From an uncultured Gammaproteobacteria bacterium (lineage in GTDB: Bacteria; Patescibacteriota; Microgenomatia; UBA8517; JACQJR01), in the NCBI GenBank assembly GCA_964442455.1, contig CAYTZB010000003.1, forward strand, positions 19,842-83,841: a stretch of DNA of 64,000 nt. Reading direction: 5' to 3'. Each line of letters starts with the position of its first letter. The stretch's first letter is position 1. The position numbers were made by a program, and so were the translations under genes. Below, piece after piece: positions 2,672 to 57,435 of the stretch. The notes under the pieces are model-generated. The model made no database searches. It saw nothing but the letters and a program-made list of their open reading frames with translations, and was not told the DNA's origin.

Positions 2672-3361
2672 TTACCTAAGTTTTGCTAGTCTTTCTACAG
2701 CAGCCTCTATTTCATGCCACCCAGCTACACGAGTTATATGATGAGCTGTAGCATTTCTGTTCCAGGGCCAATCAAGTAAAATAACTGGAACATTCATCGC
2801 TTCAGCAACTTCTTGGTGATCCTCAATAACAAGATGCGCGCCAATTGCGTTTATTGCGGCTACTTTATGATCAAGTGCTGTGTTTCCTATATTTGGAGAA
2901 ACAGCTCTTGTGGATAAGTGAACTCCTGTTTCTGGGAAAAGCAGTCCATGTCTAGAAAGCCACGATACGGTCGTTTCGTTAAGGTGGGTGGGTCGTGCAC
3001 TGACGTAGTGAATTACATGATTTTGGCCAATATTTTGTAGGACTGGTACAGCATGAGGTAAAGGTTCTGCTTCGTGGTATAGGTCAGGATCTCTATAATA
3101 CCGCTGGAAGACTACATTTTTTTCATTTTCGGTAAGATGAGATGCATATTTTTCGATAAAACTAGGTAAGAAATTAAAAGTTGAGATATCTTCCGTTTGT
3201 AATGAAGTCCCAAACTCTTCATTAAATCGCATCAATACTCTCAAGAATAAATCGTTTATAGTAGAGTCTATGTCACAGGCAATCACAAGCCTGCGGTAAC
3301 TTTCAGGTGTTTGTGGTTTTTCTCCGTCTTCTTTGCTCATTTTTCTCCATATTACTCTCAC
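2672..3361 (-). CDS. HAD-superfamily hydrolase (possible nucleotidase/phosphatase)
   Basis: HAD motif I, DxDxT, present as VIACDIDSTIND. 229 aa. Confidence 0.45.
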   Translation of the reverse strand: MRVIWRKMSKEDGEKPQTPESYRRLVIACDIDSTINDLFLRVLMRFNEEFGTSLQTEDISTFNFLPSFIEKYASHLTENEKNVVFQRYYRDPDLYHEAEPLPHAVPVLQNIGQNHVIHYVSARPTHLNETTVSWLSRHGLLFPETGVHLSTRAVSPNIGNTALDHKVAAINAIGAHLVIEDHQEVAEAMNVPVILLDWPWNRNATAHHITRVAGWHEIEAAVERLAKLR

Positions 3362-3447: not shown

Positions 3448-5322
3448 ATGAAACCTCGGATTCCGAAACCAAAAATGAGAAAATTTGAGTTGCGCCTTCA
3501 CTTTAATTTGCGCACGTTTCTGCTTATTCTTCTTATTCTTTTCTTCACGGTGCCGTTTTTCTTTTCTCTCTCAGGGATGAGACAAGGGACAGAGGAGATT
3601 GCGCTTTCTGCTGCACTTACCGACATTAAGGAACGCAAAGTTGAGAAAGTACACATAGAACAGGATAGGGTATCGCTTACCTATAAAGATGGGACTGCGC
3701 GTGTCGCGTTCAAAGAATCTAATGAGTCATTTGGACAAATACTCAAGAATGCAGATATTGACCCCAGCACGGTCTCTTACACTGTCGCTGACCAGACTTT
3801 CTCACGGATATGGGTTGATATCTTGGGAATATTGCTTCCCGTGGGTCTTATGGTGCTTTTCTTTCTCTTCATTTTCAGGCAAGCAAGAGGCGCCCAAGAG
3901 ACACTCTTTAGTTTTGGGCAATCAAGAGCCCGCTTGTTTGCCAAAGGGAAACAAAATGTGACATTTAAGGATGTTGCAGGCGTTGATGAGGCAAAGAAGG
4001 AACTCGAGGAGGTGGTTGATTTCTTAAAGAACCCCGGAAAGTATCGCGCGATGGGCGCTCGAACCCCGAAGGGGGTACTCTTGTTTGGGCCAAGCGGAGT
4101 AGGTAAAACCCTCCTGGCGCGTGCATTAGCGGGTGAGGCAGGGGTGCCATTTTTCTCAATCGCAGGAAGCGAGTTTATGGAGATGTTGGTAGGAGTCGGT
4201 GCTTCACGCGTTCGTGACCTATTTGATAATGCCAAAAAAGCTGCCCCTTCCATTATTTTCATTGATGAGATAGATGCAATAGGAAGACAGCGTGGGTTTG
4301 GAGTTACCGGTGGCCATGATGAGCGAGAACAGACATTGAACCAAATTTTGGTTGAGATGGATGGATTTACACCGAATGATAATGTGGTGGTACTTGCGGC
4401 AACCAATAGGGGAGATTTGTTGGATCCGGCACTTCTTCGTCCTGGGCGATTTGACCGACGGGTAGTGCTTGACATGCCGGATAAAGAAGGGCGGCTGGCA
4501 ATTTTACGCATTCATGCACGAGGTAAGCGGTTTAGCCATAACATAAATTGGGATAGAACTGCCGAGCGTACTGTTGGGTTTTCTGGAGCAGATCTTGAGA
4601 ATATGCTCAATGAAGCGGCAATTTTGGCAGCGCGCGATGAGAAGAAAGAAATCACCATGGTTGAGATTGAGGAGGCGGCAACGAAGGTAAAGCTTGGACC
4701 TGCCAAGAAACGGCTTCAAACAGAAGAGGATAAGAAGATTACTGCGTATCATGAAGCAGGGCACGGTATTGTGACGCATAACTTGCCCCACATGGACCCG
4801 GTACACCGCATTTCTATCGTCGCGCGCGGTATGTCTCTGGGGCACACACTTATTCCTCCAGCGGCTGACCGCTCGCATGAAACGAAGAGTCATTTACTTG
4901 AGCAAATAACCGCGATGCTCGGCGGTCGAGCAGCCGAGGAGCTTGTGTTTCGTGAGATGACGACAGGCGCAGCCAACGATATTGAAGGAGCAACTCGTCT
5001 TGCACGGCATATGGTAATTGATTTTGGCATGTCGGAACTTGGTCCGATTGATTTAGGGCCGCAAGTGGAATATGGCGAGTTTGGGAAAGCATGGCTTGAA
5101 CCGACACAAGTTTCTCCTGCAATGCAAGAGAAGGTAGATCGCGAAGTCAAAAAAATAATTGATTCATGCTACAAGCAGGCACGAGCAACTCTTCACAGCG
5201 CACGTAGGGGACTCGATACGGTAGCGCAAGCTTTGATTGAGCGCGAGACCCTCGAGCGAGATGATTTTGAGAAACTTGTTGGTCCAAAGCCTACCACTGC
5301 CCCTGCTTTTGTGAAGGTGTAA
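3448..5322 (+). CDS. ftsH: ATP-dependent zinc metalloprotease FtsH
   Basis: N-terminal TM segments. AAA Walker A GPSGVGKT and SRH region. Zinc-binding HEAGH motif. 624 aa. Confidence 0.9.
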
Positions 5323-8686: not shown

Positions 8687-9553
8687 ATGCCAGAACTACC
8701 CGAAGTTGAAACAGTACGGAGAGGTCTAGAGAAGTATCTTGTGGGGCACACAATCACCGGCGTTGAAGTGAAACTTCGGAAATTAGTGAGTGGGGATACG
8801 CAGAATGTTATTGGCGGGAAGATAAAAGGTGTAAGACGAGCCGGCAAGGGACTCATTATTGATTTGGACAATGGGTATTCGGTTGCGATTCATATTAAAT
8901 TAACAGGACAACTGATTTATCAGGGGCCAGATTCGCCCAAGCTGAAACTTTCAGAGAAGGTGGGTGGTCAACTTCCTAACAAATGGACTCACGTGATTTT
9001 CAGGCTCGATAAGAATGCATTCCTTTACTATAACGATCTACGACAATTTGGGTGGATTAAGATTGTTAAGACCGATGAGATTAAAAATCTTCCGTTCTTT
9101 CGTGAGCTTGGTCCTGAGCCCCTCGTCACTGGAAGTTCCTCGGGGCAAGCCCCCTTAACGCTTGAGAAATTTAGAGAGATTGTTAGTCGTGCTTCTACCA
9201 AAATTAAACCGTTACTTATGGATCAAAAGAAAATCGGTGGGGTAGGGAATATTTACGCCAATGATGCACTATGGCTTGCTGGTATTGATCCCAGGCGAAC
9301 TGCAAAAGGTTTAACTCCCAATGAACAGTCGAAGTTGTATAATGCAATCCTTGAAGTGCTCAAAAAAGGGTTAGCCGAGGGTGGTGCTAGCGAACTTAAT
9401 TACGTCAATGCATTGGGACAGGAAGGGGGATATCAGAAGTACTTTTTGGTCTATGGACAAGAAGGCCAACCGTGTCCCAAGAAGCATGGATTAATACAGA
9501 AAATCTATTTAGCTGGAAGAGGCACGTATTTCTGTCCCGCCTGCCAGCGCTAG
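8687..9553 (+). CDS. mutM: formamidopyrimidine-DNA glycosylase (Fpg/MutM)
   Basis: N-terminal MPELPEVE with catalytic Pro2/Glu3. H2TH region. C-terminal zinc finger CPKKHG...CPACQ. Confidence 0.85.
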   Translation: MPELPEVETVRRGLEKYLVGHTITGVEVKLRKLVSGDTQNVIGGKIKGVRRAGKGLIIDLDNGYSVAIHIKLTGQLIYQGPDSPKLKLSEKVGGQLPNKWTHVIFRLDKNAFLYYNDLRQFGWIKIVKTDEIKNLPFFRELGPEPLVTGSSSGQAPLTLEKFREIVSRASTKIKPLLMDQKKIGGVGNIYANDALWLAGIDPRRTAKGLTPNEQSKLYNAILEVLKKGLAEGGASELNYVNALGQEGGYQKYFLVYGQEGQPCPKKHGLIQKIYLAGRGTYFCPACQR

Positions 9554-19381: not shown

Positions 19382-20353
19382 ATGGCAATTCCTTTAGCAA
19401 TACTTATTTTTTTCTTCGTGTTCCTCCTTCTGCTTGGAGCGAATATGGTTGTTGCTGGGTTGCGTCACTTTTCTTCTACGTCAAAGACTTCTGTATTTAC
19501 CCTTTCAGCAATTCTTCTTGCGCTTGCAACATCGTTTCCAGAGCTTTTTGTTGCGTTGACATCAGGGCTTGAAGGAAGTTCAGAACTTTCATTGGGTAAT
19601 GTCTTGGGCGCTAATGTTACAAACCTTACCTTGGTGGCTGGGGGAGCAGCACTTCTTGCTGGTCGAGTGACGATGCAGGGTGCCTTTTTGCAGCGTGAAG
19701 CATGGTTTGCACTCATCGCAGGCGTAATTCCACTTGTGTTGTTATTGGATGGTGTTATATCTCGTGTTGATGGGATGATTCTTATTACTGTATGGGGAGC
19801 GTATGTTGCTCACTTCTTTCATATTCGTTTTGTACAAATTGCGCATAGACTTGTACAAGAGGGGTTTTGGTACAGATTCTTACATAGAGTTGAAGTGGAT
19901 GTTAATGGGGCGAGAAGAAAAGAGCTGGCTCGACTTTTGTTAGGGGTAGCACTGCTTCTTTTCTCAGCTGACGTCATTGTCCGGTTATCACTTTCTCTTG
20001 CAACAGACATTGGTATACCGATCTTTTTAGTAGGTGTTCTGGTCGTGGCACTTGGGACAACACTTCCTGAGCTTGCATTTTCGTTCCGCTCTCTTGCTGA
20101 TGGTGAACCACAGATGTTTTTAGGCAATATTTTGGGATCCCTTATTACGAATGCAACGCTTGTCGTAGGGGTAGCAGCGCTTCTTTCTCCTATTCGCGTT
20201 GAACTCACTCCAGTGTTAACGGTCGGCGCGGTTTTTGTTATAACGTATGCACTTTTTTGGTTTTTTATACGAACAAAGCAACGTCTTGATCGTTTTGAAG
20301 CTCTAGCTCTCGTGGTAGTGTATATTTTATTTGTGATTGTTATTCGCTCATGA
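19382..20353 (+). CDS. Ca2+/Na+ antiporter, CaCA family (YrbG-like)
   Basis: Two alpha-repeat signatures, GNVLGANVTNL and GNILGSLITNATLV. About 10 TM helices. Confidence 0.75.
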   Translation: MAIPLAILIFFFVFLLLLGANMVVAGLRHFSSTSKTSVFTLSAILLALATSFPELFVALTSGLEGSSELSLGNVLGANVTNLTLVAGGAALLAGRVTMQGAFLQREAWFALIAGVIPLVLLLDGVISRVDGMILITVWGAYVAHFFHIRFVQIAHRLVQEGFWYRFLHRVEVDVNGARRKELARLLLGVALLLFSADVIVRLSLSLATDIGIPIFLVGVLVVALGTTLPELAFSFRSLADGEPQMFLGNILGSLITNATLVVGVAALLSPIRVELTPVLTVGAVFVITYALFWFFIRTKQRLDRFEALALVVVYILFVIVIRS

Positions 20354-38887: not shown

Positions 38888-38959
38888 GGCCCTGTAGTCT
38901 AGCGGTTAGGACACGACCCTTTCAAGGTTGGGACACGGGTTCGATTCCCGTCAGGGCCA
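38888..38959 (+). tRNA. tRNA-Glu(TTC)
   Basis: Manual cloverleaf. Acceptor GGCCCTG/CAGGGCC. Anticodon loop CTTTCAA. T-loop TTCGATT. Confidence 0.85.
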
Positions 38960-38967
38960 CCCAAAAT

Positions 38968-39100
38968 ATTTTCCATTGTCCATCTTGCCTGTCGGCAGAC
39001 AGGTTTTCCAGTTTCCAATTATTGTCGATTTACTAATCTTCAAATTGATGAATGGAAAATCAATGGCAAATGGCAGTTGGAAATTGGCAAATTTTAAATA
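38968..39100. repeat. AT-rich TTCCAATT/AATTGGAA-type repeat element between tRNA genes
   Basis: Hairpin CCTGTCGGCAGACAGG followed by TTCCAGTTTCCAATT ... GGAAATTGGCAAATTT palindromic arms. Confidence 0.5.
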
Positions 39101-39101
39101 T

Positions 39102-39175
39102 GGGCCGCTAGCTCAACTGGATAGAGCAGGAGCCTTTTAAGCTCTTGGTTCTGGGTCCGAGTCCCAGGCGGCTCA
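39102..39175 (+). tRNA. tRNA-Lys(TTT)
   Basis: Manual cloverleaf. Acceptor GGGCCGC/GCGGCTC. Anticodon loop CTTTTAA. T-loop TCCGAGT-type. Confidence 0.85.
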
Positions 39176-39182
39176 CTGTTAT

Positions 39183-39256
39183 TGCGGGTTCGTCTAACGG
39201 CAGGACTGCGCTCTTTGGAAGCGTATATCGGGGTTCGAATCCCTGACCCGCAGCCA
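39183..39256 (+). tRNA. tRNA-Gln(TTG), CCA encoded
   Basis: Manual cloverleaf. U1-A72 acceptor TGCGGGT/ACCCGCA. Anticodon loop CTTTGGA. T-loop TTCGAAT. 3' GCCA. Confidence 0.8.
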
Positions 39257-43151: not shown

Positions 43152-43538
43152 CGGCTTCAGTGCCGTAACGAGCGCAACCCCTACCTGCTGTTAGATTATT
43201 CAGCGGGGACGGTCTCCCTTCGGGGAGAAGGAAGGAGGGGATGATGTCAAGTCAGCATGGCCCTTATACCCAGGGCAACACACATGCTACAATGACCGCG
43301 ACAATGGGTTGCCAAGCCGTAAGGTGGAGCTAATCCCATCAAACGTGGTCTCAGTGGGGATTGTGGGCTGCAACTCGCCCACATGAACGCGGAATTGGTA
43401 GTAATCGCGGGTCAGCTATACCGCGGTGAATACGTTATCAGGTCTTGTACACACCGCCCGTCAAGCCAGCAAAGTTGGGGGCACCTGAAGGTCCCTTTTT
43501 GGGAACGAGGGTGAATCCAGCGATGAGGACTAAGTCGT

Positions 43539-44282
43539 AGACGCAAACTGCGTTTGTTGCGACCTTCTGGAGTAATCCAGTTGAAAAATTCAACTGTATC
43601 GGTGAACTCCTACTTGATATTCGCGTCATCTTCGGATACGCTGAATTAAAAAGGAGAATACCGAGGGAAGTCTCCCATTAGATACGAAGTTATCTAACGG
43701 GATGACCCCGTAGAGACTACACGTTGACTCCTCAAGAATGACTAAAGCATATTTGCTTGGCGCTTTACATGACGGTACCGTACGGAGACTAACTTATCGC
43801 ATCGTCCAGAAAGATCAAGAGTACATTGAATTTCTTGTAAAAGGGATTCAGAATCTTGGTCAAAAAGTCTGGATGTATAAAGAAGGGAAGAGCAGACAAC
43901 TTTATGTTGCCGAGTTCTCAAGAAACTTCTTAAAAGATTTTGTTTTGCAAACTTTGCAGGACAAAGTTGATTACATCCGAGGTTATTTCGATGCAGAAGG
44001 TGGAGTCTCGAGAAATCCAAAAGTTCGATACTACATTTATTTCGCTCAGAAAAATCTAAAAGATTTAGAGCAGGTAAAAAGATTTTTAGAAGAACTAGGG
44101 ATAGAATGCGGTATCTTACATAATCCAAGCAAAGGAGTAGACCCCAATTATTGGCGATTTTTCGTTAGAGCTTGTTCTTACGGAAGATTTGCACACTTAA
44201 TTGGAAGTTGGCATCCTGTTAAAAGTCAATTTTTGAGGATGAAGATATAGTCCATGCCACTAGTAATAGTTGGAGTAACATG
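43539..44282 (+). mobile_element. intron in 16S rRNA at E. coli position ~1506 (putative group I), encoding a homing endonuclease
   Basis: Removing 43539-44282 restores the universal AAGTCGT|AACAAGGTA. The 5' exon ends in U and the insertion ends in G. Confidence 0.7.
43738..44250 (+). CDS. LAGLIDADG-family homing endonuclease (intron-encoded)
   Basis: Two LAGLIDADG-like motifs, LLGALHDGTV and IRGYFDAEGGV. 170 aa. Located entirely inside the 16S insertion. Confidence 0.8.
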   Translation: MTKAYLLGALHDGTVRRLTYRIVQKDQEYIEFLVKGIQNLGQKVWMYKEGKSRQLYVAEFSRNFLKDFVLQTLQDKVDYIRGYFDAEGGVSRNPKVRYYIYFAQKNLKDLEQVKRFLEELGIECGILHNPSKGVDPNYWRFFVRACSYGRFAHLIGSWHPVKSQFLRMKI

Positions 44283-44595
44283 AACAAGGTATCCGTACTG
44301 GAAGGTGCGGATGGATCACCTCCTTTCTAGGAGAAATAGGGTTCACGGCCCTATCCGCCAATTGGCGGAGTGATATTCACCCGAGAGTTTACCTTTACTC
44401 TCGTTTCCTCCCAAAGCCCATTTTGGGCATTGTGGCGGACCAGCCTAAATACTTTTGTTTTTGGCTGGAAACAACAAAAGGATTCTTCCGGTCACTTTCT
44501 GAAGGTCAAGGAAAAAATCCCTAGCAAACGCTGGGGATTTTTTGCCTCCGGCCCTTGAGGGCCTCTGGCCCGGAGGGTATAATTAATGTGCCTTT

Positions 44596-44805
44596 GGGCT
44601 GCTGGTTCAGCGGTAGAACGCTTTCCTGATGACAAACAAAGTTTGACATATCAAATTTTGATACATAACATGGGTGCGTGGCTCAGTGGTAGAGCGTCGT
44701 CCTGATAAGACGAAGGTCCTTGGTTCGATCCCAAGCGCACCCACACAGCAAAGTACAAAATTTGTTATAAGAAAGAGGTGCTAGGTTCGACTCCTAGGCA
44801 GCCCA
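44596..44805 (+). tRNA. split tRNA with GAU anticodon (tRNA-Ile-like) carrying a 136-nt insertion in the anticodon loop
   Basis: The 5' half 44596-44632 and 3' half 44770-44805 pair perfectly: acceptor GGGCTGC/GCAGCCC, D-stem GTTC/GAAC, anticodon stem CTTTC/GAAAG, T-arm CTAGG-TTCGACT-CCTAG. The anticodon loop CTGATGA is interrupted at the canonical 37/38 site. Confidence 0.6.
44672..44743 (+). tRNA. tRNA-Ile(GAT), nested inside the insertion of the outer tRNA
   Basis: Manual cloverleaf. Acceptor GGGTGCG/CGCACCC. Anticodon stem TCGTC/GACGA. Loop CTGATAA. T-loop TTCGATC. Confidence 0.85.
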
Positions 44806-45277
44806 CTACCAAAATCAAAATTTCAAGTCCGTTATCCCTCCCTCACCCACACAATTCACAGTTGACCCATTCGGCTTAGCTCAGGTCTTCGACTCTGAGG
44901 TTGAGCACCTCAGTGCTCAGACTCGAAGAGGTCAATCCTGAATATAATTGAAGGGTTGACAAGCTTCTTTTAATTCCTCTATAATGTAACGTACTGGGTT
45001 AGCCAGTTTTCCTGAATGAGAAGAATCTTACAATCCTTAAAAGCGATTTCGCGGAAATTTTGGCGTGGCAAAGAATAGATAGCTAAGGAAATTCTTCTTG
45101 AGTTTGAAACTGGCGAACCCGCCAGTTTTTTTTGTGTACCTTTAGAATTATAAAAACAAGCTTTGCTTGTTTTTCGCTTTGCTCAAAATAGTACACAACC
45201 CTACCAAAATCGCAGCACGAAGCGTATACGAATAGTATTGAAAAGCTGAGTGCTAAGATTGGGAGGGTATTACATAC

Positions 45278-45350
45278 GGGCCCGTAGTTCAACCGGCAGA
45301 ACACTTCATTTGCAATGAAGAGGTAGGCGGTTCGACACCGCCCGGGTCCA
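45278..45350 (+). tRNA. tRNA-Ala(TGC)
   Basis: G3:U70 identity pair (GGGCCCG/CGGGTCC). Anticodon loop TTTGCAA. T-loop TTCGACA. Confidence 0.85.
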
Positions 45351-45909
45351 CAATCCGCCAGCTGGCGGAGGTTCTTTGACAACCAAGAGAAAATTGTGCA
45401 AGATTTAAACTATTTGCCTTTTGATAACACGAGGCAAGATAGTGGAGTAGAGCCGTGTCAACAGAACGCGCACAGTGGATGCCTTGGCACACGCTACCGA
45501 AGAAGGACGCAGTTGGCCGCGATACTCGTCGGATAGGTGCCAACAACCGATAATCCGGCGATTTCCGAATGGGGAAACCCCTCCGATGGTAACATCGGAG
45601 AGCCCCCGATTTAATCGGGGGTGGGGAACTCGGGGAACTGAAACATCTAAGTACCCGGAGGAAGAGAAATCTAAGAGATTCCGTCAGTAGCGGTGAGCGA
45701 AAGCGGAAGAGCCTAAACCCCCTCGTGGGGTGTTGTGGGACTAACATACGGGATGGAGGAGGATAGCAGAAGAGTCTGGAATGGCTCACCAAAGAAGGTG
45801 AAAGTCCGGTACGCGAAATCCAAATCCACCTAGTTTTGCTCCCAAGTACCATGGAGCAGATACTCTGTGGGAATCTGGGGGGACCACCCTCCAAGGCTAA
45901 ATATAGTGT

Positions 45910-45952
<43 letters not shown>

Positions 45953-46009
45953 TGGGCGGGACGCCCAGTGAAATAGAACCTGAAACTGTGTGCGAACAAG
46001 CCGGTAGAG

Positions 46010-46203
46010 CTTGTGCATGGCACAAGAAATTCGAAGCACGAATTTTAAAGCACGAAATTCGAATATCGAAGCACGAAACAAATCATAAATTCAAATTTTC
46101 AAATGTTTCAAACATTAGAATTTTGAACATTTAGTATTGTTTCGAATTTCGTATTTCTGATTTCGAATTTAATTTTCTTTCGAGTTTCTCGCGCTGTGCG
46201 CGA
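46010..46203 (+). repeat. intervening-sequence-like palindromic element in 23S helix 25 region (E. coli ~540)
   Basis: Lies between ...GAACAAGCCGGTAGAG and TGATACCGTGCCTATTGAAGAATGAGCCGGCGAGT. Hairpins CTTGTGC-ATGG-CACAAG and CTCGCGC-TGTG-CGCGAG. The core is nearly identical to the 16S copy. Confidence 0.6.
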
Positions 46204-46716
46204 GTGATACCGTGCCTATTGAAGAATGAGCCGGCGAGTCCTCATCGTTTCTGTGTCTAAGTCATTAACTGACGCAGGCATAGAGAAATCGAGTGTGAAT
46301 AGCGCGTTTCTGGTCTATACCAGATTAGAAACGGTGGGGGACCCGAAACCGGGCGATCTATCCATGGGCAGGGTGAACCCCGCAGAAATGCGGGGGAAGG
46401 CCCGAACCCGTCTAGGGGACAATCTGGTGGGATGACCTGTGGATAGCGGTAAAATGCCAATCGAGCCCGGAGATAGCTGGTTCTCCCCGAAAGGTCTATG
46501 GGGACCGCGGAAGTAAAAAGCGTGTCAGGGGTAGAGCACTGAATGGGTGGAGGAGGGTAACCGACTTCACTCAATCAAACTCCGAATACTGGCGCGTATA
46601 AATCCAGACAGACTCACGGGGCTAAGCTCGTGAGTCGAGAGGGAAACAGCCCAGATTCTCGTCTAAGGTCTCGAAGTCTTGGCTCAGTTGGAAAGGATGT
46701 CATATTCCCAAGACAC

Positions 46717-46747
<31 letters not shown>

Positions 46748-46845
46748 TAAAGAAAGCGTAACAGCTCACTGGAAGAGGCCCGCATGGGCTGGGAGTATGG
46801 CGCCGAAAATGATCGAGGATTAAGCCAAGCACCGAAGACAGAGGG

Positions 46846-47013
46846 CCTTGTCATTTGGACAGGGAAATTCGAAGCACGAATATCGAAGCTCGAAACAATA
46901 TCAAAATTCAAAAATTTAAATTTCAAAATTATTTTGAATTTAGTATTTTAAGAATTGTAATTTGTTTCGGATTTCGGATTTAGAATTTCGGATTTTCTCG
47001 CCCAGAGGGCGAG
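46846..47013 (+). repeat. intervening-sequence-like palindromic element in 23S helix 45 region (E. coli ~1170)
   Basis: Lies just before the conserved TTGGTAGGGGAGCGTTCCGTA. Hairpins CCTTGTC-ATTTG-GACAGG and CTCGCCC-AGAG-GGCGAG flank a GAAATTCGAAGCACGAA ... TTTCGGATTTCGGATTT core. Confidence 0.6.
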
Positions 47014-48369
47014 GTTGGTAGGGGAGCGTTCCGTATGCGGTGAAGTTTCACCGTAAGGTGAGGTGGAGCGTACGGAAGTGAGAATGCCGGCATGAGTAGC
47101 GTACGAGTCCGGTGAGAATCCGGACCGCCGAATACCCAAGGTTTCCGTCGCAACGTTCGTCGACGACGGGTTAGTCGGTCCTAAGGAGAGCCCGCCAACT
47201 GGCGGGGTATCTGATGGGAAAGCCGTTAATAATCGGCTACTCGTTTTGTATCGTTATTTAGCCAGGGGTTGACGAGTGTGGAGGTGTTGGGCCCTATACA
47301 GATTGGGGTGTAAGCTGCAAGGCAGTTCCGGCAGGGAAATCCGCCGAAGCGTTTTAACCGAGCAGCAATGCAGACCCCCGTAAGGGGGAATTCAACTACC
47401 TTTAGACTCCGAGAAAAGACTCGTGGTGAGATACAGAACGGACCGTACCGCAAACCGACACTGGTGGGTTGGCAGAGTATGCTAAGGCGAGTGGGAGAAA
47501 GAGGCTCAAGGAACTCGGCAAACAAGCTGGACGTAAGTTCGCAAGATGTCCTCCCCACCCTTTCTGGGTATCAGTATTCCGATATGGGTATTGGTATTTA
47601 GAAAGGGTGGGGTGCAACAAATGACTGTCTCTCGACTGTTTAGCAAAAACACAGGTCCCTGCAAACCCGAAAGGGAAGGTATAGGGGCTGACGCCTGCCC
47701 AGTGCCGGTAAGTCAAGGGGAGGTGTCCGTTGTCCGCCTTTGGCGGACTATGGAGCACTGAACTGAAGCTCCGGTAAACGGCAGCAGTAACTATAACTGT
47801 TCTACGGTAGCGAAGTTCCTTGTCGTGTAAGTTACGACCCGCACGAAAGGCGTCACGAGGAGACAACTGTCTTGAGCCTTTACCCAGCGAAATTGCGATG
47901 GCTGTGAAGACGCGGCCTACTTGCACCAGGACAAATAGACCCCGTGGAGCTTTACTGCAACCTGGCATTGCTACCATTTGTTTTGATTGTTGAGCGTAGG
48001 AGGGAGTCCTTTCCGCAAGGTCAGGACGTCAATGAAACACCTCTCTTCAAAATACGTGGGGCTTATCTGAGTCCGCTGGAAACGCGGATAGAAACAGTGC
48101 TTGGTGGGCAGTTTTACTGGGGCGGTATCCTGCTAAAGTGTAACGCAGGAGTGCAAAGGTCGGCTTAGCACGGATGGAAATCGTGCTGGACGGGTAAGAC
48201 CTTAAGCCGGCTTGACTGCAAGGTCGACGGACCGAGCAGGTACGAAAGTAGGTTCTAGTGATCCTCGCGTTCGTCGTGGGACGGCGCGGGCTTAACGGAT
48301 AAAAGCTACCCCGGGGATAACAGAGTAGTCGGTCCCGAGAGTCCATATCGACGGGCCGGTTCGCTACCT

Positions 48370-48720
48370 CAACAATGACATCGGGGTCCTTCGATGGTAA
48401 CATCGGAGTGCTGTTAGTCAAACTCTACCAGTAGTTTGGCAAAATATCGACTCATAACGGTGAATCCTGTATATTGACATTCGTGTATCTTTCGGGATAA
48501 CGTTAGTTAATAATGGTAACACCGTGGGAAGTTTATCGGATGTTCAACAACAATTAATTTTAGGTTGTGTCTTGGCGGTATAAAATTCCGATATAACCCC
48601 GTATCGACTTTTTCTTTTTAAGAAAAGATGGAGAGTTTTCTCCATAATACGTCGACGCCCATTTTGTTGTGATGGGTGAAGGTATAGTCAGGCTACCACG
48701 AAAGTGGATAGGTTTATTTG
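48370..48720 (+). mobile_element. ORF-less intron-like insertion in 23S rRNA at E. coli ~2499/2500 (candidate group I intron)
   Basis: Removing 48370-48720 restores GCTACCT|CGATGTCGGCTC (E. coli GGCACCTCGATGTCGGCTC). The exon ends in U and the insertion ends in G. GAAGGTATAGTCAGG resembles the group I S element AAGATATAGTCC. Confidence 0.45.
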
Positions 48721-49157
48721 CGATGTCGGCTCAGCGTATCCTGGGGGTGAAGAAGCTCCCAAGGGTTGGTCTGTTCGCCCATTAAAACGCTACGCGAGCT
48801 GGGTTCAGAACGATGTGAATCAGTTCGGACTCTATCCGGTGCAAGCGTGAGAGTCTTGAGGGGATCTGGCCTCAGTACGAGAGGACCAGGCTGGAGGAAT
48901 CCCTAGTGTGCCGGTTGTCCCATCCGGGGCAACGCCGGGTAGCTACATTCCTACGGGATAACTGTTGAAAGCATCAAATCAGGAAACCCACCCCAAGATG
49001 AGGACTCCTTATCAAGACCCCTGGAAGATTACCAGGTTGATAGGTAGGAGGTGGAAGGAGAGCAATCTCTTAAGCCTACCTATACTAATTGGTCAACACA
49101 CGGCTTACTCCACACATTTTGTTTCGTGTTATTAGAAGGCAATTTTCTCATGAGTTG

Positions 49158-49280
49158 TTTGGCCTGGTGGCTCGAGCGGTATGGAACCACCTCTTCCCAT
49201 CTCGAACAGAGAAGTGAAACGTACCAGCGCCGACGATATCCTAACATTACGTTTGGGGAAAATAGGTCGTTGCCAGGCCA
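49158..49280 (+). rRNA. 5S rRNA
   Basis: TTGGCCTGGTGGC...CCCATCTCGAACAGAGAAGTGAAAC...TGCCAGGCCA. Typical 5S ends and loop C. About 120 nt. Confidence 0.8.
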
Positions 49281-56213: not shown

Positions 56214-57287
56214 TTGAAACGACTCCTTTCCGATTTCAATATTTTTTTATATCGGTTTCTTTTCTACCTTCGTCGTCGAGTTCTACGTGGATTTTTTCAG
56301 TTTGAGCGTGGGAAGGGTCTGTTTGTCGGAGCTCTCTATCAGCAGCGAGGGCGTTTGGTGCGGCCATTTCTTCACTCGAGTATGGGTGTAATTACGGCCA
56401 TGAGTTTACTGCTCGCGCCTGTCGTGGCGCAACAGTTACCCCAAGGGAATGAGGATCCCTGGCAAGCAGTCCCTGCGGTTCTTTCTGCCGAAACCGAAAA
56501 TCCGCAGACCGCAACGCTTATATCCGACAAACCTCGTGATCGTATTATTGAATATACTGTTCAGAGTGGCGATACAGTTGGGGTACTCGCCCAGAAGTTT
56601 GGTATTTCAGAAGAGACTATTCTTTGGGCGAATAATTTAAGCGCACGCTCGACTCTCAAGCCCGGACAGACCATACAAATTTTGCCGGTGTCGGGAATTG
56701 CCCATAAAGTAGGACCGGGTGATACGATTTATTCGATTGCAAAGAAATACACTGCCGAACCACAGGCTATTGTTGATTTTCCCTTCAATACCTTTACCAA
56801 TGATGAAACATTCGCGTTGGCAGTAGGGCAGATTATCGTTGTGCCTGATGGAGCGCCGCCAAAGGAAGCACCCGCGCCGCTCGCGCAACGCCGACGTACC
56901 ACACCTGACGCAGGAACAGTCACTGCTTCGGGGACCTTTATTTGGCCGGTTTCTGGAAACTTCTCACAGGGTTTTGCTTGGTATCACAGGGGGATAGACA
57001 TTGCCAACAAGGCAGGGCCTGATGTACTGGCCGCGGATTCGGGTACGGTTGTGTTTGCCGGGTGCGTGGGCGGAGGATACGGATGCCACGTCATTATTGA
57101 CCATGAAAACGGATATAAGACGCTATATGGACATTTTTCTCAAATCTATGTCGCTCAGGGACAGCGAGTTGCGAGAGGGAATGCGATAGGGAAGATGGGC
57201 TCAACCGGCCGCTCAACCGGCACCCACCTTCACTTTGAGATTATCCAGTCTGGAGTCCAGGTAAATCCGTTGAGTATATTAAGATAG
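56214..57287 (+). CDS. LysM-domain M23 family metallopeptidase
   Basis: Two LysM repeats (YTVQSGDTVGVLAQKFGI; HKVGPGDTIYSIAKKY). M23 motifs HRGIDI and GSTGRSTGTHLHFEI. Confidence 0.75.
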   Translation: MKRLLSDFNIFLYRFLFYLRRRVLRGFFQFERGKGLFVGALYQQRGRLVRPFLHSSMGVITAMSLLLAPVVAQQLPQGNEDPWQAVPAVLSAETENPQTATLISDKPRDRIIEYTVQSGDTVGVLAQKFGISEETILWANNLSARSTLKPGQTIQILPVSGIAHKVGPGDTIYSIAKKYTAEPQAIVDFPFNTFTNDETFALAVGQIIVVPDGAPPKEAPAPLAQRRRTTPDAGTVTASGTFIWPVSGNFSQGFAWYHRGIDIANKAGPDVLAADSGTVVFAGCVGGGYGCHVIIDHENGYKTLYGHFSQIYVAQGQRVARGNAIGKMGSTGRSTGTHLHFEIIQSGVQVNPLSILR

Positions 57288-57360
57288 TGGACCCGAGGGG
57301 ATTCGAACCCCTAGTCTCTTCCATGCCATGGAAGCGCGATAGCCATTACGCTACGGGCCC
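57288..57360 (-). tRNA. tRNA-Ala(GGC)
   Basis: Reverse-complement cloverleaf. G3:U70 (GGGCCCG/CGGGTCC). Anticodon stem CTTCC/GGAAG with loop ATGGCAT. T-loop TTCGAAT. Confidence 0.75.
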
Positions 57361-57361
57361 T

Positions 57362-57435
57362 TGGTGGACCTGCCGAGAATCGAACTCGGAACTTACCCAT
57401 GCGAAGGGTACGGTATACCACTTACCTACAGGCCC
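57362..57435 (-). tRNA. tRNA-Ala(CGC), CCA encoded
   Basis: Reverse-complement cloverleaf. G3:U70 (GGGCCTG/CAGGTCC). Anticodon stem TACCC/GGGTA with loop TTCGCAT. T-loop TTCGATT. 3' ACCA. Confidence 0.75.

Follow-up and report, generated by a model that had tools for sequence, protein, structure and literature searches.

A tRNA-Ile(GAU) gene nested in the anticodon loop of a second tRNA-Ile(GAU) gene in a Microgenomatia rRNA operon: a putative tRNA replacement cassette

The group I introns of bacterial tRNA genes lie in the anticodon loop (of tRNA-Leu(UAA) at 34/35, of tRNA-fMet at 33/34, of tRNA-Arg at 36/37 and, in Patescibacteria, of tRNA-Asn and tRNA-Asp at 35/36). They are common in the tRNA genes of Patescibacteria, where a survey of tRNA interruptions found group I introns only, and they have been reported at every anticodon-loop position except 37/38 (PMC13011429). 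Here we describe a tRNA-Ile(GAU) gene in the 16S-23S spacer of an rRNA operon that is likewise interrupted in its anticodon loop, in this case by a 138-bp cassette that contains a complete second tRNA-Ile(GAU) gene, an arrangement that we call a nest. It lies within a 64,000-nt stretch of DNA ("the window"; positions 19,842 to 83,841 of contig CAYTZB010000003.1, assembly GCA_964442455.1) from an uncultured bacterium of the Microgenomatia. The probable insertion site, 36/37, is a known group I intron site, the 5' exon of the nest ends in U as in group I introns, and the same operon carries a group I intron in its 16S gene; in contrast to such introns, the insert has only 65 nt that are not tRNA, does not match the Rfam Intron_gpI model, does not end in G and has a whole tRNA inside it, and nothing suggests that the exons of the nest are rejoined.

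Transfer RNAs encoded in pieces with pairing halves are also known from archaeal bulge-helix-bulge (BHB) introns and from split, tri-split and permuted genes (Nanoarchaeum, Caldivirga, Cyanidioschyzon), and BHB introns, like the insert described here, lie next to the anticodon and have base-paired ends. The nest differs from these in that it has no usable BHB, is accompanied by bacterial rRNAs and has as its intervening piece a tRNA of the same identity; moreover its outer copies decay in relatives and so are not required. The two outer halves are collinear and lie 138 nt apart with an intact tRNA of the same anticodon between them, which is the arrangement of neither a split nor a permuted tRNA gene. 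Integrative elements that target tRNA genes, with an attP that includes the 3' part of the tRNA, similarly place foreign DNA in a tRNA gene whose loss is averted by the incoming tRNA sequence, and they share with the nests the orphan tRNA halves and the repeated layering (accretion). Here, however, the insert is a complete and independent tRNA, the orphans are 5' as well as 3' halves, the insert is only ~138 bp long and has no recombinase gene, and it has a conserved RNA-like hairpin-and-helix design. The intervening sequences of 23S and 16S rRNA are stem-forming inserts that are cut out by RNase III without re-ligation, and the insert of the nest is probably likewise cut out unspliced; a fragmented rRNA stays functional, whereas a tRNA cut in its anticodon loop would not, and function would move to the excised piece. 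Finally, in the intronless homing of phage T4 SegB a nuclease reportedly cuts the rival allele and so biases the inheritance or replacement of tRNA genes. An open reading frame (ORF) of the GIY-YIG type that abuts tRNA-Ala in a relative (locus L268, Table 1) recalls what is said of that system, but no endonuclease gene is linked to the cassette, and homing replaces and does not nest. Full-text literature searches, of incomplete coverage such that a prior description is possible, found no description of a tRNA nested in a tRNA, and the nested tRNA cassette is apparently undescribed.

Anatomy of the nest in the window

The segments on the two sides of the cassette, when joined (44596-44630 + 44769-44805, or 44596-44631 + 44770-44805), form a 72-nt cloverleaf in which all 21 stem pairs are Watson-Crick (acceptor 7/7, D 4/4, anticodon 5/5, T 5/5) and which ARAGORN calls as a 72/73-nt tRNA-Ile(gat); this agrees with the original prediction, made by eye from the letters and translated reading frames of the window, that the outer segments make up a fully paired GAU cloverleaf. 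Also in accord with that prediction, the cassette holds an intact tRNA-Ile(GAU), which is called by ARAGORN and scores 72.3 bits in the Rfam tRNA model (RF00005; threshold 29). In the native sequence ARAGORN and Rfam detect this inner tRNA alone and miss the outer copy; the intron mode of ARAGORN, proposed earlier as a check, likewise reports only the inner tRNA there, and only the artificially joined outer halves are folded. As a control for chance, 138 nt were removed at each position of the window and tRNAs were called on the products; a junction-spanning tRNA was obtained at 28 adjacent offsets (44616-44643) only, together with one spurious AT-rich match at 9464. The window has a single instance of two T-loops 51 nt apart, whereas 100 shuffles gave none, and by BLAST neither the halves nor the flanks have a second copy or a relic elsewhere in the window. 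The nested tRNA feature is real and reproducible.

The inner and outer tRNAs differ at 18 or more positions and have unlike stems. Their acceptor strands are incompatible: no pairing is possible between GGGTGCG (inner, 5') and GCAGCCC (outer, 3'). The outer tRNA keeps A73, C4-G69 and U12-A23, and it has G15:G48 in place of the usual 15:48 pair. The inner tRNA is taken to be the working gene.

Placement of the junction is ambiguous by one or two bases. With the cut at 36/37 (...CTGAT/AAGAAAG..., where the slash marks the junction) the joined halves read ...CTTTCCTGATAAGAAAG... and the exon-exon join is CTTTCCTGAT/AAGAAAG; the loop is then the canonical CTGATAA with A37 that the inner tRNA also has. 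A cut at 37/38 gives the loop CTGATGA with G37, which is atypical for a tRNA that reads ANN codons. Because homologs retain ...CTGAT/RR at the 5' junction and ...TTAT/AA at the 3' junction, the insertion site is read as 36/37, and the "canonical 37/38" position given earlier is probably off by one. The insert had been taken to be 136 nt long; it is 137 nt by the boundaries then used (with a 1-nt ambiguity) and 138 nt with the cut at 36/37.

Table 1. Features of the nest and its operon in the window, and the related or analogous loci discussed in the text
Locus	Feature	Position	Strand	Identity	Details
Window	16S rRNA	from 41893			Rfam match stops at 43595
Window	16S, last part before intron	43532-43538			AAGTCGT
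Window	Group I intron in 16S	43539-44282			~744 nt
Window	LAGLIDADG ORF of intron	43738-44250			Pfam PF14528, E = 1e-16
Window	Group I core fragment of intron	44157-44273			29 bits
Window	16S 3' end after intron	44283 to ~44327			AACAAGGTATCC...GGATCACCTCCTTTCT
Window	Terminator-like hairpin with T run	~44511-44547			ahead of promoter-like site
Window	Promoter-like site TTGAGG-17-TATAAT	44555-44583	+		10/12 consensus matches; 12 nt upstream of outer 5' end
Window	Outer tRNA-Ile(GAU), 5' part	44596-44630	+		nt 1-36; acceptor GGGCTGC, D arm GTTC-AGCGGTA-GAAC, anticodon stem CTTTC, loop CTGAT
Window	Inserted cassette	44631-44768	+		138 nt; 5' flank, inner tRNA, 3' flank
Window	Small hairpin CAAAC-AAA-GTTTG	44633-44645	+		begins two nt past 5' junction
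Window	Flank helix, 5' strand	44648-44664	+		ATATCAAATTTTGATAC; predicted duplex with 3' flank
Window	Inner tRNA-Ile(GAU)	44672-44743 (end 44743/4)	+		72 nt; ARAGORN and Rfam; canonical loop CTGATAA; CCA not encoded
Window	Flank helix, 3' strand	44753-44768	+		GTACAAAATTTGTTAT; ends at conserved junction ..TTAT/AA
Window	Outer tRNA-Ile(GAU), 3' part	44769-44805	+		nt 37-73; AA, anticodon stem GAAAG, variable loop AGGTG, T arm CTAGG-TTCGACT-CCTAG, acceptor GCAGCCC, discriminator A; CCA not encoded
Window	Terminator-like hairpins with T runs, perfect-consensus promoter	44956-44985, 45106-45139			in spacer
Window	tRNA-Ala	45278-45350			
Window	23S rRNA	45451-49107			3657 nt
Window	5S rRNA	49163-49278			
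L164	Orphan half and nest				L260-type orphan 5' half plus complete nest
L260/261	Orphan half and tRNA-Ile			96% to L164	orphan 5' half with 29-nt D-loop hairpin, flank, one intact Ile; 3' half absent
L262	Inverted locus			85%	decayed outer 5' half is L260 functional tRNA type; inner is the window's, 72/72
L263-265	Nest			74%	two decayed 5' halves, conserved flank, intact Ile, two decayed 3' halves
L266/267, L268/269	Plain tRNA-Ile				nest absent
L272-274	Nest (Blackburnbacteria, three assemblies)				intact L268-type 5' half, decayed 3' half; same flank plan, other sequence
L141	Val / Val / Val	3981-4277	+		three layers
L159	Lys(CTT) outer / Lys(CTT) inner				
L188	Val(CAC) / Val(CAC)				
L190	Thr(GGT) / Thr(GGT)				
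L194	CAT / CAT				Met/Ile2
L196	Val(GAC) / Val(GAC)				
L207	Val tRNA in D loop of another				
L213	Gly(GCC) in variable region of Asn(GTT)				identities differ
L250	tRNA in Leu(TAA)-like outer	~4282-4442 of reverse complement	-		cut at 34/35; identities differ

The original prediction placed short AT-rich palindromes on the two sides of the inner tRNA. Both are present: CAAAGTTTG belongs to a small hairpin just inside the 5' junction, and ATCAAATTTTGAT makes more sense as the 5' strand of a helix with the 3' flank than as a palindrome. The hairpin covaries in the homologous nests discussed below (CAAAG-GAA-CTTTG in L164, CAAAC-GAA-GTTTG in L263 and CAGAC-TCCGAA-GTCTG in L272). The flank duplex has a predicted energy of -10.5 kcal/mol (z = -2.9), equalled by 7 of 500 shuffles, and in the predicted fold its 15 pairs set the inner cloverleaf atop the outer anticodon arm. 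Modelling shows that the sequence is able to form such a double cloverleaf, with the inner tRNA stacked on an extended outer anticodon arm; a hand-built version has -61.4 kcal/mol, against -67.7 for the minimum free energy (MFE) fold. The flanks pair better than shuffled flanks in 10 of the 11 nests tested (z from -2.6 to -7.3). A promoter-like TTGACA-17-TAACAT element in the 5' flank was considered as the reason for the conservation of TTGACATAT and was rejected, as it ends at the first base of the inner tRNA and so lies too near to drive that gene.

Signals for splicing were sought in several ways. The insert had been judged too small for a group I intron, and Intron_gpI indeed has no match in it; a sensitive Rfam search of 43550-45500 finds that model solely in the 16S intron. 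By the group I end rule the 5' exon fits, as it ends in T36, but the insert does not, as it ends in ...GTTAT or ...GTTATA and not in G. The 65 non-tRNA nt of the insert have no Rfam match at E<=5 and contain no recognizable ribozyme, and there is no ORF in the cassette. A BHB-like fold at the boundaries, which the original prediction had raised, was looked for at 15 x 15 = 225 pairs of cut sites, the motif being two 3-nt bulges and a 4-bp helix with a 7-nt loop as the result. The motif is absent from all three pairs that would give back a 7-nt loop, and the five 4/4 matches seen equal the ~5 expected by chance (2.3% per pair) and are register-shifted such that they break the anticodon stem. 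No match to an EndA-like splicing endonuclease or to a ligase was found among the scanned ORFs of the window. At the DNA level, the insert was compared with MITEs and other small non-autonomous transposons, which have terminal inverted repeats, target-site duplications and several copies per genome. GACAAA and TTTGTT form a partial repeat at its ends, AT stands at either junction, and the 64 kb contain a single copy; the repeat and the AT are also seen in L164, L263, L272 and L194 and hint at insertion at the DNA level, although no matching family was recognized. By-eye comparison of the junctions with IS200/IS605-type ends, an IS630-type TA duplication and an integrase core site found none of these to be consistent across the homologs.

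Nests in Microgenomates relatives and nests of other tRNAs

The S1 protein encoded in the window clusters at >=90% with one named Candidatus Blackburnbacteria, and the relatives of its short-S1 and LAGLIDADG proteins are named Microgenomates, Blackburnbacteria or Patescibacteria. The tRNA-Ile loci of relatives were fetched with the LAGLIDADG protein and a gene neighbouring L164, whose homologs are named Woesebacteria, as handles. The comparison of spacers that had been proposed earlier gave homologous nests at the same site in L164, L263 and L272. Locus L164 is a true homolog, with an outer and an inner tRNA-Ile(GAU), the same junctions, and then tRNA-Ala and 23S. The 5' stretch TGGTTCAGCGGTAGAACGCTTTCCTGAT of the window outer tRNA is identical in L164, and the eight differences between the two outer tRNAs make up four compensated pairs (acceptor 5-68, 6-67 and 7-66, and T stem 50-64) with no uncompensated difference, while the adjacent flanks are ~30% different with indels. 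Nests are present in independent JGI, ENA and NCBI assemblies, and several were recovered two or three times in identical form.

The cassettes at this junction in L164, L263-265 and L272-274 share one hairpin-plus-helix plan, in which the helix sequences are wholly different (strand pairs CAAATTTTG/CAAAATTTG and CAAAATTC/GAATTTTG, for example, and CCGAGATTGTC/GACAATCTCGG in L272) and the flank hairpin and the long helix are retained through compensatory change. The outer tRNAs are of different types: that of L272 resembles the plain tRNA-Ile of L268, those of the window, L164 and L263 are of another type, and the outer 5' half of L262 is of a type that is still functional and uninterrupted in L260. 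Layers also turn over, as L164 and L260 differ by one whole layer even though their neighbouring proteins are 96% identical. Outer copies are decayed in L262, L263 and L272, where acceptor or T stems have mismatches and hairpins have been inserted into D or T loops; in L263-265 the T stem is mismatched, the T loop has gained an insertion and the acceptor strands have ceased to match. All eight lineages fetched by synteny retain an uninterrupted tRNA-Ile. The inner tRNAs of the window and L262 are identical at 72 of 72 positions, whereas the tRNA-Ala genes of these two hosts differ at 18 of 73 positions; tRNA-Ala of the window and of L272 differ at 8 of 73.

A search of 2.2 Mb of loci gave no further tRNA-Ile nest and no uninterrupted tRNA of the outer type beyond the known loci. 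Outside the nest, the window spacer has no homology to that of L164 or L272 that could be used to set the limits of an exchanged segment. A contig scan with S1 found the lineage barely sampled, the best relative (85%) being on a contig that starts inside 23S and lacks the spacer, and exact-protein look-ups of the window S1, the LAGLIDADG protein and its closest variant gave only short contigs without the spacer. The window S1 is present in the sequencing runs SRR12113420, SRR12113422 and SRR12113430.

Several further features of these loci deserve mention. The relic halves in L164, L260, L262, L263 and L272 carry short hairpin-forming insertions exactly in the D or T loops, of which the 29-nt D-loop insertion CTTGCCCCGCCTATTTCAGGCGGGGCAAA is common to L164 and L260; such hairpins may be a second kind of small insertion that favours tRNA loops. 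In the Woesebacteria L262 and L266/L267, tRNA-Ile, nested or plain, runs opposite to tRNA-Ala and 23S; in L164 and L260 all three have the same orientation. At ~2700-2960 (- strand) of L260 an intact tRNA-Ala of the L268 type lies inside an outer tRNA-Ala of the window/L272 type, and the latter keeps G3:U70 and has a hairpin inserted in its D loop; tRNA-Ala differs at 19 positions between L260 and L164 despite the 96% identity of the neighbouring proteins.

Nests are not limited to tRNA-Ile. A metagenome scan for two T-loops 28-58 nt apart gave at least 120 loci, and among the matches listed most were a tRNA followed by an orphan 3' half and about a dozen were nests (Table 1). These usually have the same anticodon inside and outside (Val, Thr, Lys, Met/Ile2, Ala). 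In the triple Val nest, L141, the MFE fold alone recovers all three layers, the outermost of which has an anticodon loop one base short, and L243 resembles a collapsed L141, with one tRNA-Val and then two orphan 3' halves. The cut of L250 at 34/35 is at what we take to be the classic group I site of tRNA-Leu; its inner tRNA has CCA present and an apparently 8-nt anticodon loop, and ARAGORN calls it "tRNA-???". In viral contigs the generic pattern of two T-loops less than a tRNA length apart matched mostly tightly packed tandem tRNAs and scars of a tRNA plus a 3' fragment. Viral-contig scans for the two junction motifs returned nothing but chance hits in coding sequence, and one for the inner type of tRNA returned none; from these scans there is no sign that a known virus carries the cassette.

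Origin and fate of the interrupted gene

We consider it probable, with some reserve, that the locus is a tRNA replacement cassette within a resident cognate gene and that the outer halves are an unspliced relic. A 138-bp cassette would have split the resident tRNA-Ile(GAU) between nt 36 and 37 and brought in a complete replacement tRNA-Ile(GAU), bracketed by the small hairpin and a leader/trailer helix. Transcription would start at the promoter-like site just upstream or come with the rRNA operon, and the inner tRNA would mature as bacterial tRNAs generally do, with RNase P making the 5' end and with 3' processing plus addition of CCA, and would serve as the decoding tRNA-Ile(GAU) of the cell. 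The outer halves would not be rejoined, and as remains of the earlier gene they would decay over time. In Woesebacteria and Blackburnbacteria, members of a cassette family would have invaded one and the same site of unlike resident tRNA-Ile genes, and repeated entry would have built two or three nested layers in places. The cassette may have been moved in trans by a site-specific nuclease or recombinase, or its entry may be a product of repair or of recombination with incoming DNA.

A small tRNA-carrying insertion is preferred because one cassette plan occurs at one site in at least three outer types, because layers turn over and outer copies decay, and because the identical inner tRNA is found elsewhere. 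Among the possibilities that the original prediction had listed, its "novel small insertion element carrying a tRNA" is thus the one best supported by the comparative data; a "decaying duplicate" describes the outer halves of L262, L263 and L272 well, but not the window, where the outer copy is perfect. The match in identity between inner and outer tRNAs would follow because a cell whose essential tRNA gene, usually its single copy, is disrupted can live on only when the insert supplies that very tRNA, on the assumption that these genomes, like those of Patescibacteria in general, have one copy of each tRNA.

Several observations weigh against this reading. The window outer tRNA is flawless, with only the four compensated pairs between it and L164 where the flanks have diverged so far; a long-dead relic should not look so preserved, which implies either recent independent insertion in both lineages or selection on the outer fold or a part of it. 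The window outer tRNA matches the Woesebacterial outer and not that of the closer relative L272, and the junction-proximal parts of halves that are clearly dead (GCTTTCCTGATGA and AAGAAAGAGGTG) are invariant. In the window no integrase, transposase or free-standing endonuclease lies beside the cassette, which has no ORF of its own and is present as a single copy in the 64 kb, and no uninterrupted copy of the window outer tRNA type is present among the loci examined.

If the replacement cassette reading is correct, the nest is a kind of interruption outside the known disrupted tRNA genes (those with group I or group II introns or BHB introns, and split and permuted genes), and an essential RNA gene would have been invaded by a tiny cassette bearing its own replacement, with nesting up to three deep. 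It would reveal a way in which tRNA alleles pass from one lineage of ultra-small uncultured bacteria to another, and would be a natural test of whether bacteria can cope with a tRNA that is interrupted by a non-ribozyme. It would also mark a blind spot in annotation, as outer tRNAs are invisible to tRNA finders and orphan halves may be misread as integration scars, and the conserved hairpin-and-helix flanks would be a lead in the search for an unknown factor that processes or mobilises the unit.

The preservation of the outer fold could instead reflect selection for an RNA-level job other than decoding, with the nest as a functional composite precursor in which the outer tRNA acts, for example, as a scaffold to fold, protect or process the inner pre-tRNA or marks the RNase P or RNase Z cuts that free the unit. 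We regard this as unlikely. It would account for the purely compensated changes between the window and L164 outers next to flanks that are ~30% different, and it is in keeping with the covariation of flank hairpin and helix even where the outer 3' half is dead, with the tendency of 5' halves to outlast 3' halves (L260, L272) and with a predicted transcription start that is ~6 nt away from where the outer tRNA begins. The outer copies, however, are decayed or partly gone in L260, L262, L263 and L272 with the inner gene intact, and L268 and L266 have no nest at all; because the fold is decayed or absent in relatives without loss of the inner gene, it is dispensable. Sites for RNase P and 3' processing are in any case already supplied by the inner tRNA.

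It is quite improbable that the outer gene is a true interrupted tRNA, with some unknown bacterial pathway trimming and ligating the halves or with the halves serving as a tRNA in two pieces, so that each locus would yield two tRNAs-Ile(GAU). The perfect outer cloverleaf, the canonical anticodon loop restored by the 36/37 join, the retention of A73, C4-G69 and U12-A23 and the compensated nature of the changes relative to L164 are all what such a tRNA would display, and cleavage by RNase P and RNase Z should produce 3'-OH and 5'-P termini, which the flank helix would keep together. The original prediction had likewise entertained a processed tRNA-in-tRNA that yields a mature outer tRNA. It finds no support and is weakened by the lack of a BHB at any splice pair that restores the 7-nt loop, the 4/4 matches occurring at the chance rate, and by the lack of a ribozyme match in the 65 non-tRNA nt; removal of the inner tRNA would leave 41 + 25 nt of flank on the exons, outer copies decay in relatives, an uninterrupted Ile gene is present in every relative examined such that the outer is never the sole one, and the outer has G15:G48. 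A specific form of this idea seems a shade less probable again. In it, some Patescibacteria would do without a ribozyme or a BHB endonuclease: the embedded tRNA would be the "intron", cut out by RNase P and RNase Z, after which the outer halves, kept together by the conserved flank helix, would be trimmed and ligated or used as two pieces; if true, it would be a new, protein-dependent bacterial tRNA splicing and would also explain why the window outer cloverleaf has changed only by compensated pairs.

Nor does a local origin without any mobility, in which tRNA-Ile was triplicated in tandem and the present flanks are what is left of the first copy's 3' half and the third copy's 5' half after their decay, seem at all probable. 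The 5' flank is faintly like a decayed 3' half (AGTTTGACA vs GGTTCGACT) and the 3' flank faintly like a decayed 5' half (CAGCAAAGTA vs CAGCGGTAGA; ~48% over 23 nt, by eye), and L164 has a tandem repeat of the unit "5' half plus flank". Triplication gives no account, however, of why exactly two complementary halves stayed perfect while their partners decayed, of the 18 or more inner/outer differences with different stems, or of one cassette plan in different outer types and an identical inner tRNA in a distant host.

That the halves are leftover attachment sites of integrase-driven islands, which targeted the anticodon arm and later lost the island body, is very doubtful. Many of the metagenome loci do consist of a tRNA and then an orphan 3' half, which is the usual integration scar (L243, for example), and the insert ends partly mimic an anticodon arm with AT repeated at both junctions. 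Classical integration, however, gives a hybrid tRNA with a host 5' part and an element 3' part, and because the inner and outer acceptor stems (GGGTGCG and GCAGCCC) are incompatible the inner gene is not such a hybrid; there are orphan 5' as well as 3' halves, no integrase is present among the scanned neighbours, and the inserts of independent nests are all tiny. That the resemblance is due to chance or to an error of assembly, for which nothing speaks except that the window is from a single source, has a negligible probability; it is refuted by the deletion control, which, apart from one spurious match, returns a tRNA only at this site, and by the homologous nests in independent assemblies.

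The surrounding rRNA operon

The operon has the order 16S, tRNA-Ile, tRNA-Ala, 23S and 5S. The end of the Rfam 16S match is wrong, and the 16S 3' end is near 44327, as a group I intron (AAGTCGT/...G/AACAAGGTA) with a LAGLIDADG ORF parts the last segment of the gene from the rest. The true spacer therefore begins near 44328, and the nest lies ~270 nt into it. Homologs of the LAGLIDADG ORF, with 70-86% identity, are widespread in Microgenomates, apparently at the same 16S site. The 23S gene is also longer than its 2925-nt model by ~730 nt of insertions, which would be introns or intervening sequences.

Because the promoter-like site upstream of the nest is preceded by a terminator-like hairpin, the nest may be its own transcription unit; L268 and L272 likewise have a hairpin and T run and then TATAAT upstream of tRNA-Ile. 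At 44511-44547, 44956-44985 and 45106-45139 the spacer has terminator-like hairpins and a perfect-consensus promoter, TTGACA-18-TATAAT, and because of these the operon may be transcribed in pieces (16S; the Ile nest; Ala-23S-5S). In L268 (3810-5961), from a Microgenomates genome, the Ile-Ala spacer contains protein genes (a hydrolase and an HTH/Gp49 pair), the GIY-YIG ORF mentioned above encodes 80 amino acids and begins right after tRNA-Ala, and the 16S region has two further LAGLIDADG ORFs.

Elsewhere in the window, a Glu-Lys-Gln tRNA cluster lies upstream of the operon (38888-39256), and tRNA-Ala(GGC) and tRNA-Ala(CGC) lie 1 nt apart at 57287-57435 (- strand). CCA is unencoded in all window tRNAs inspected. 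The window genes are nearly all on the plus strand, and the GC skew is steadily positive.

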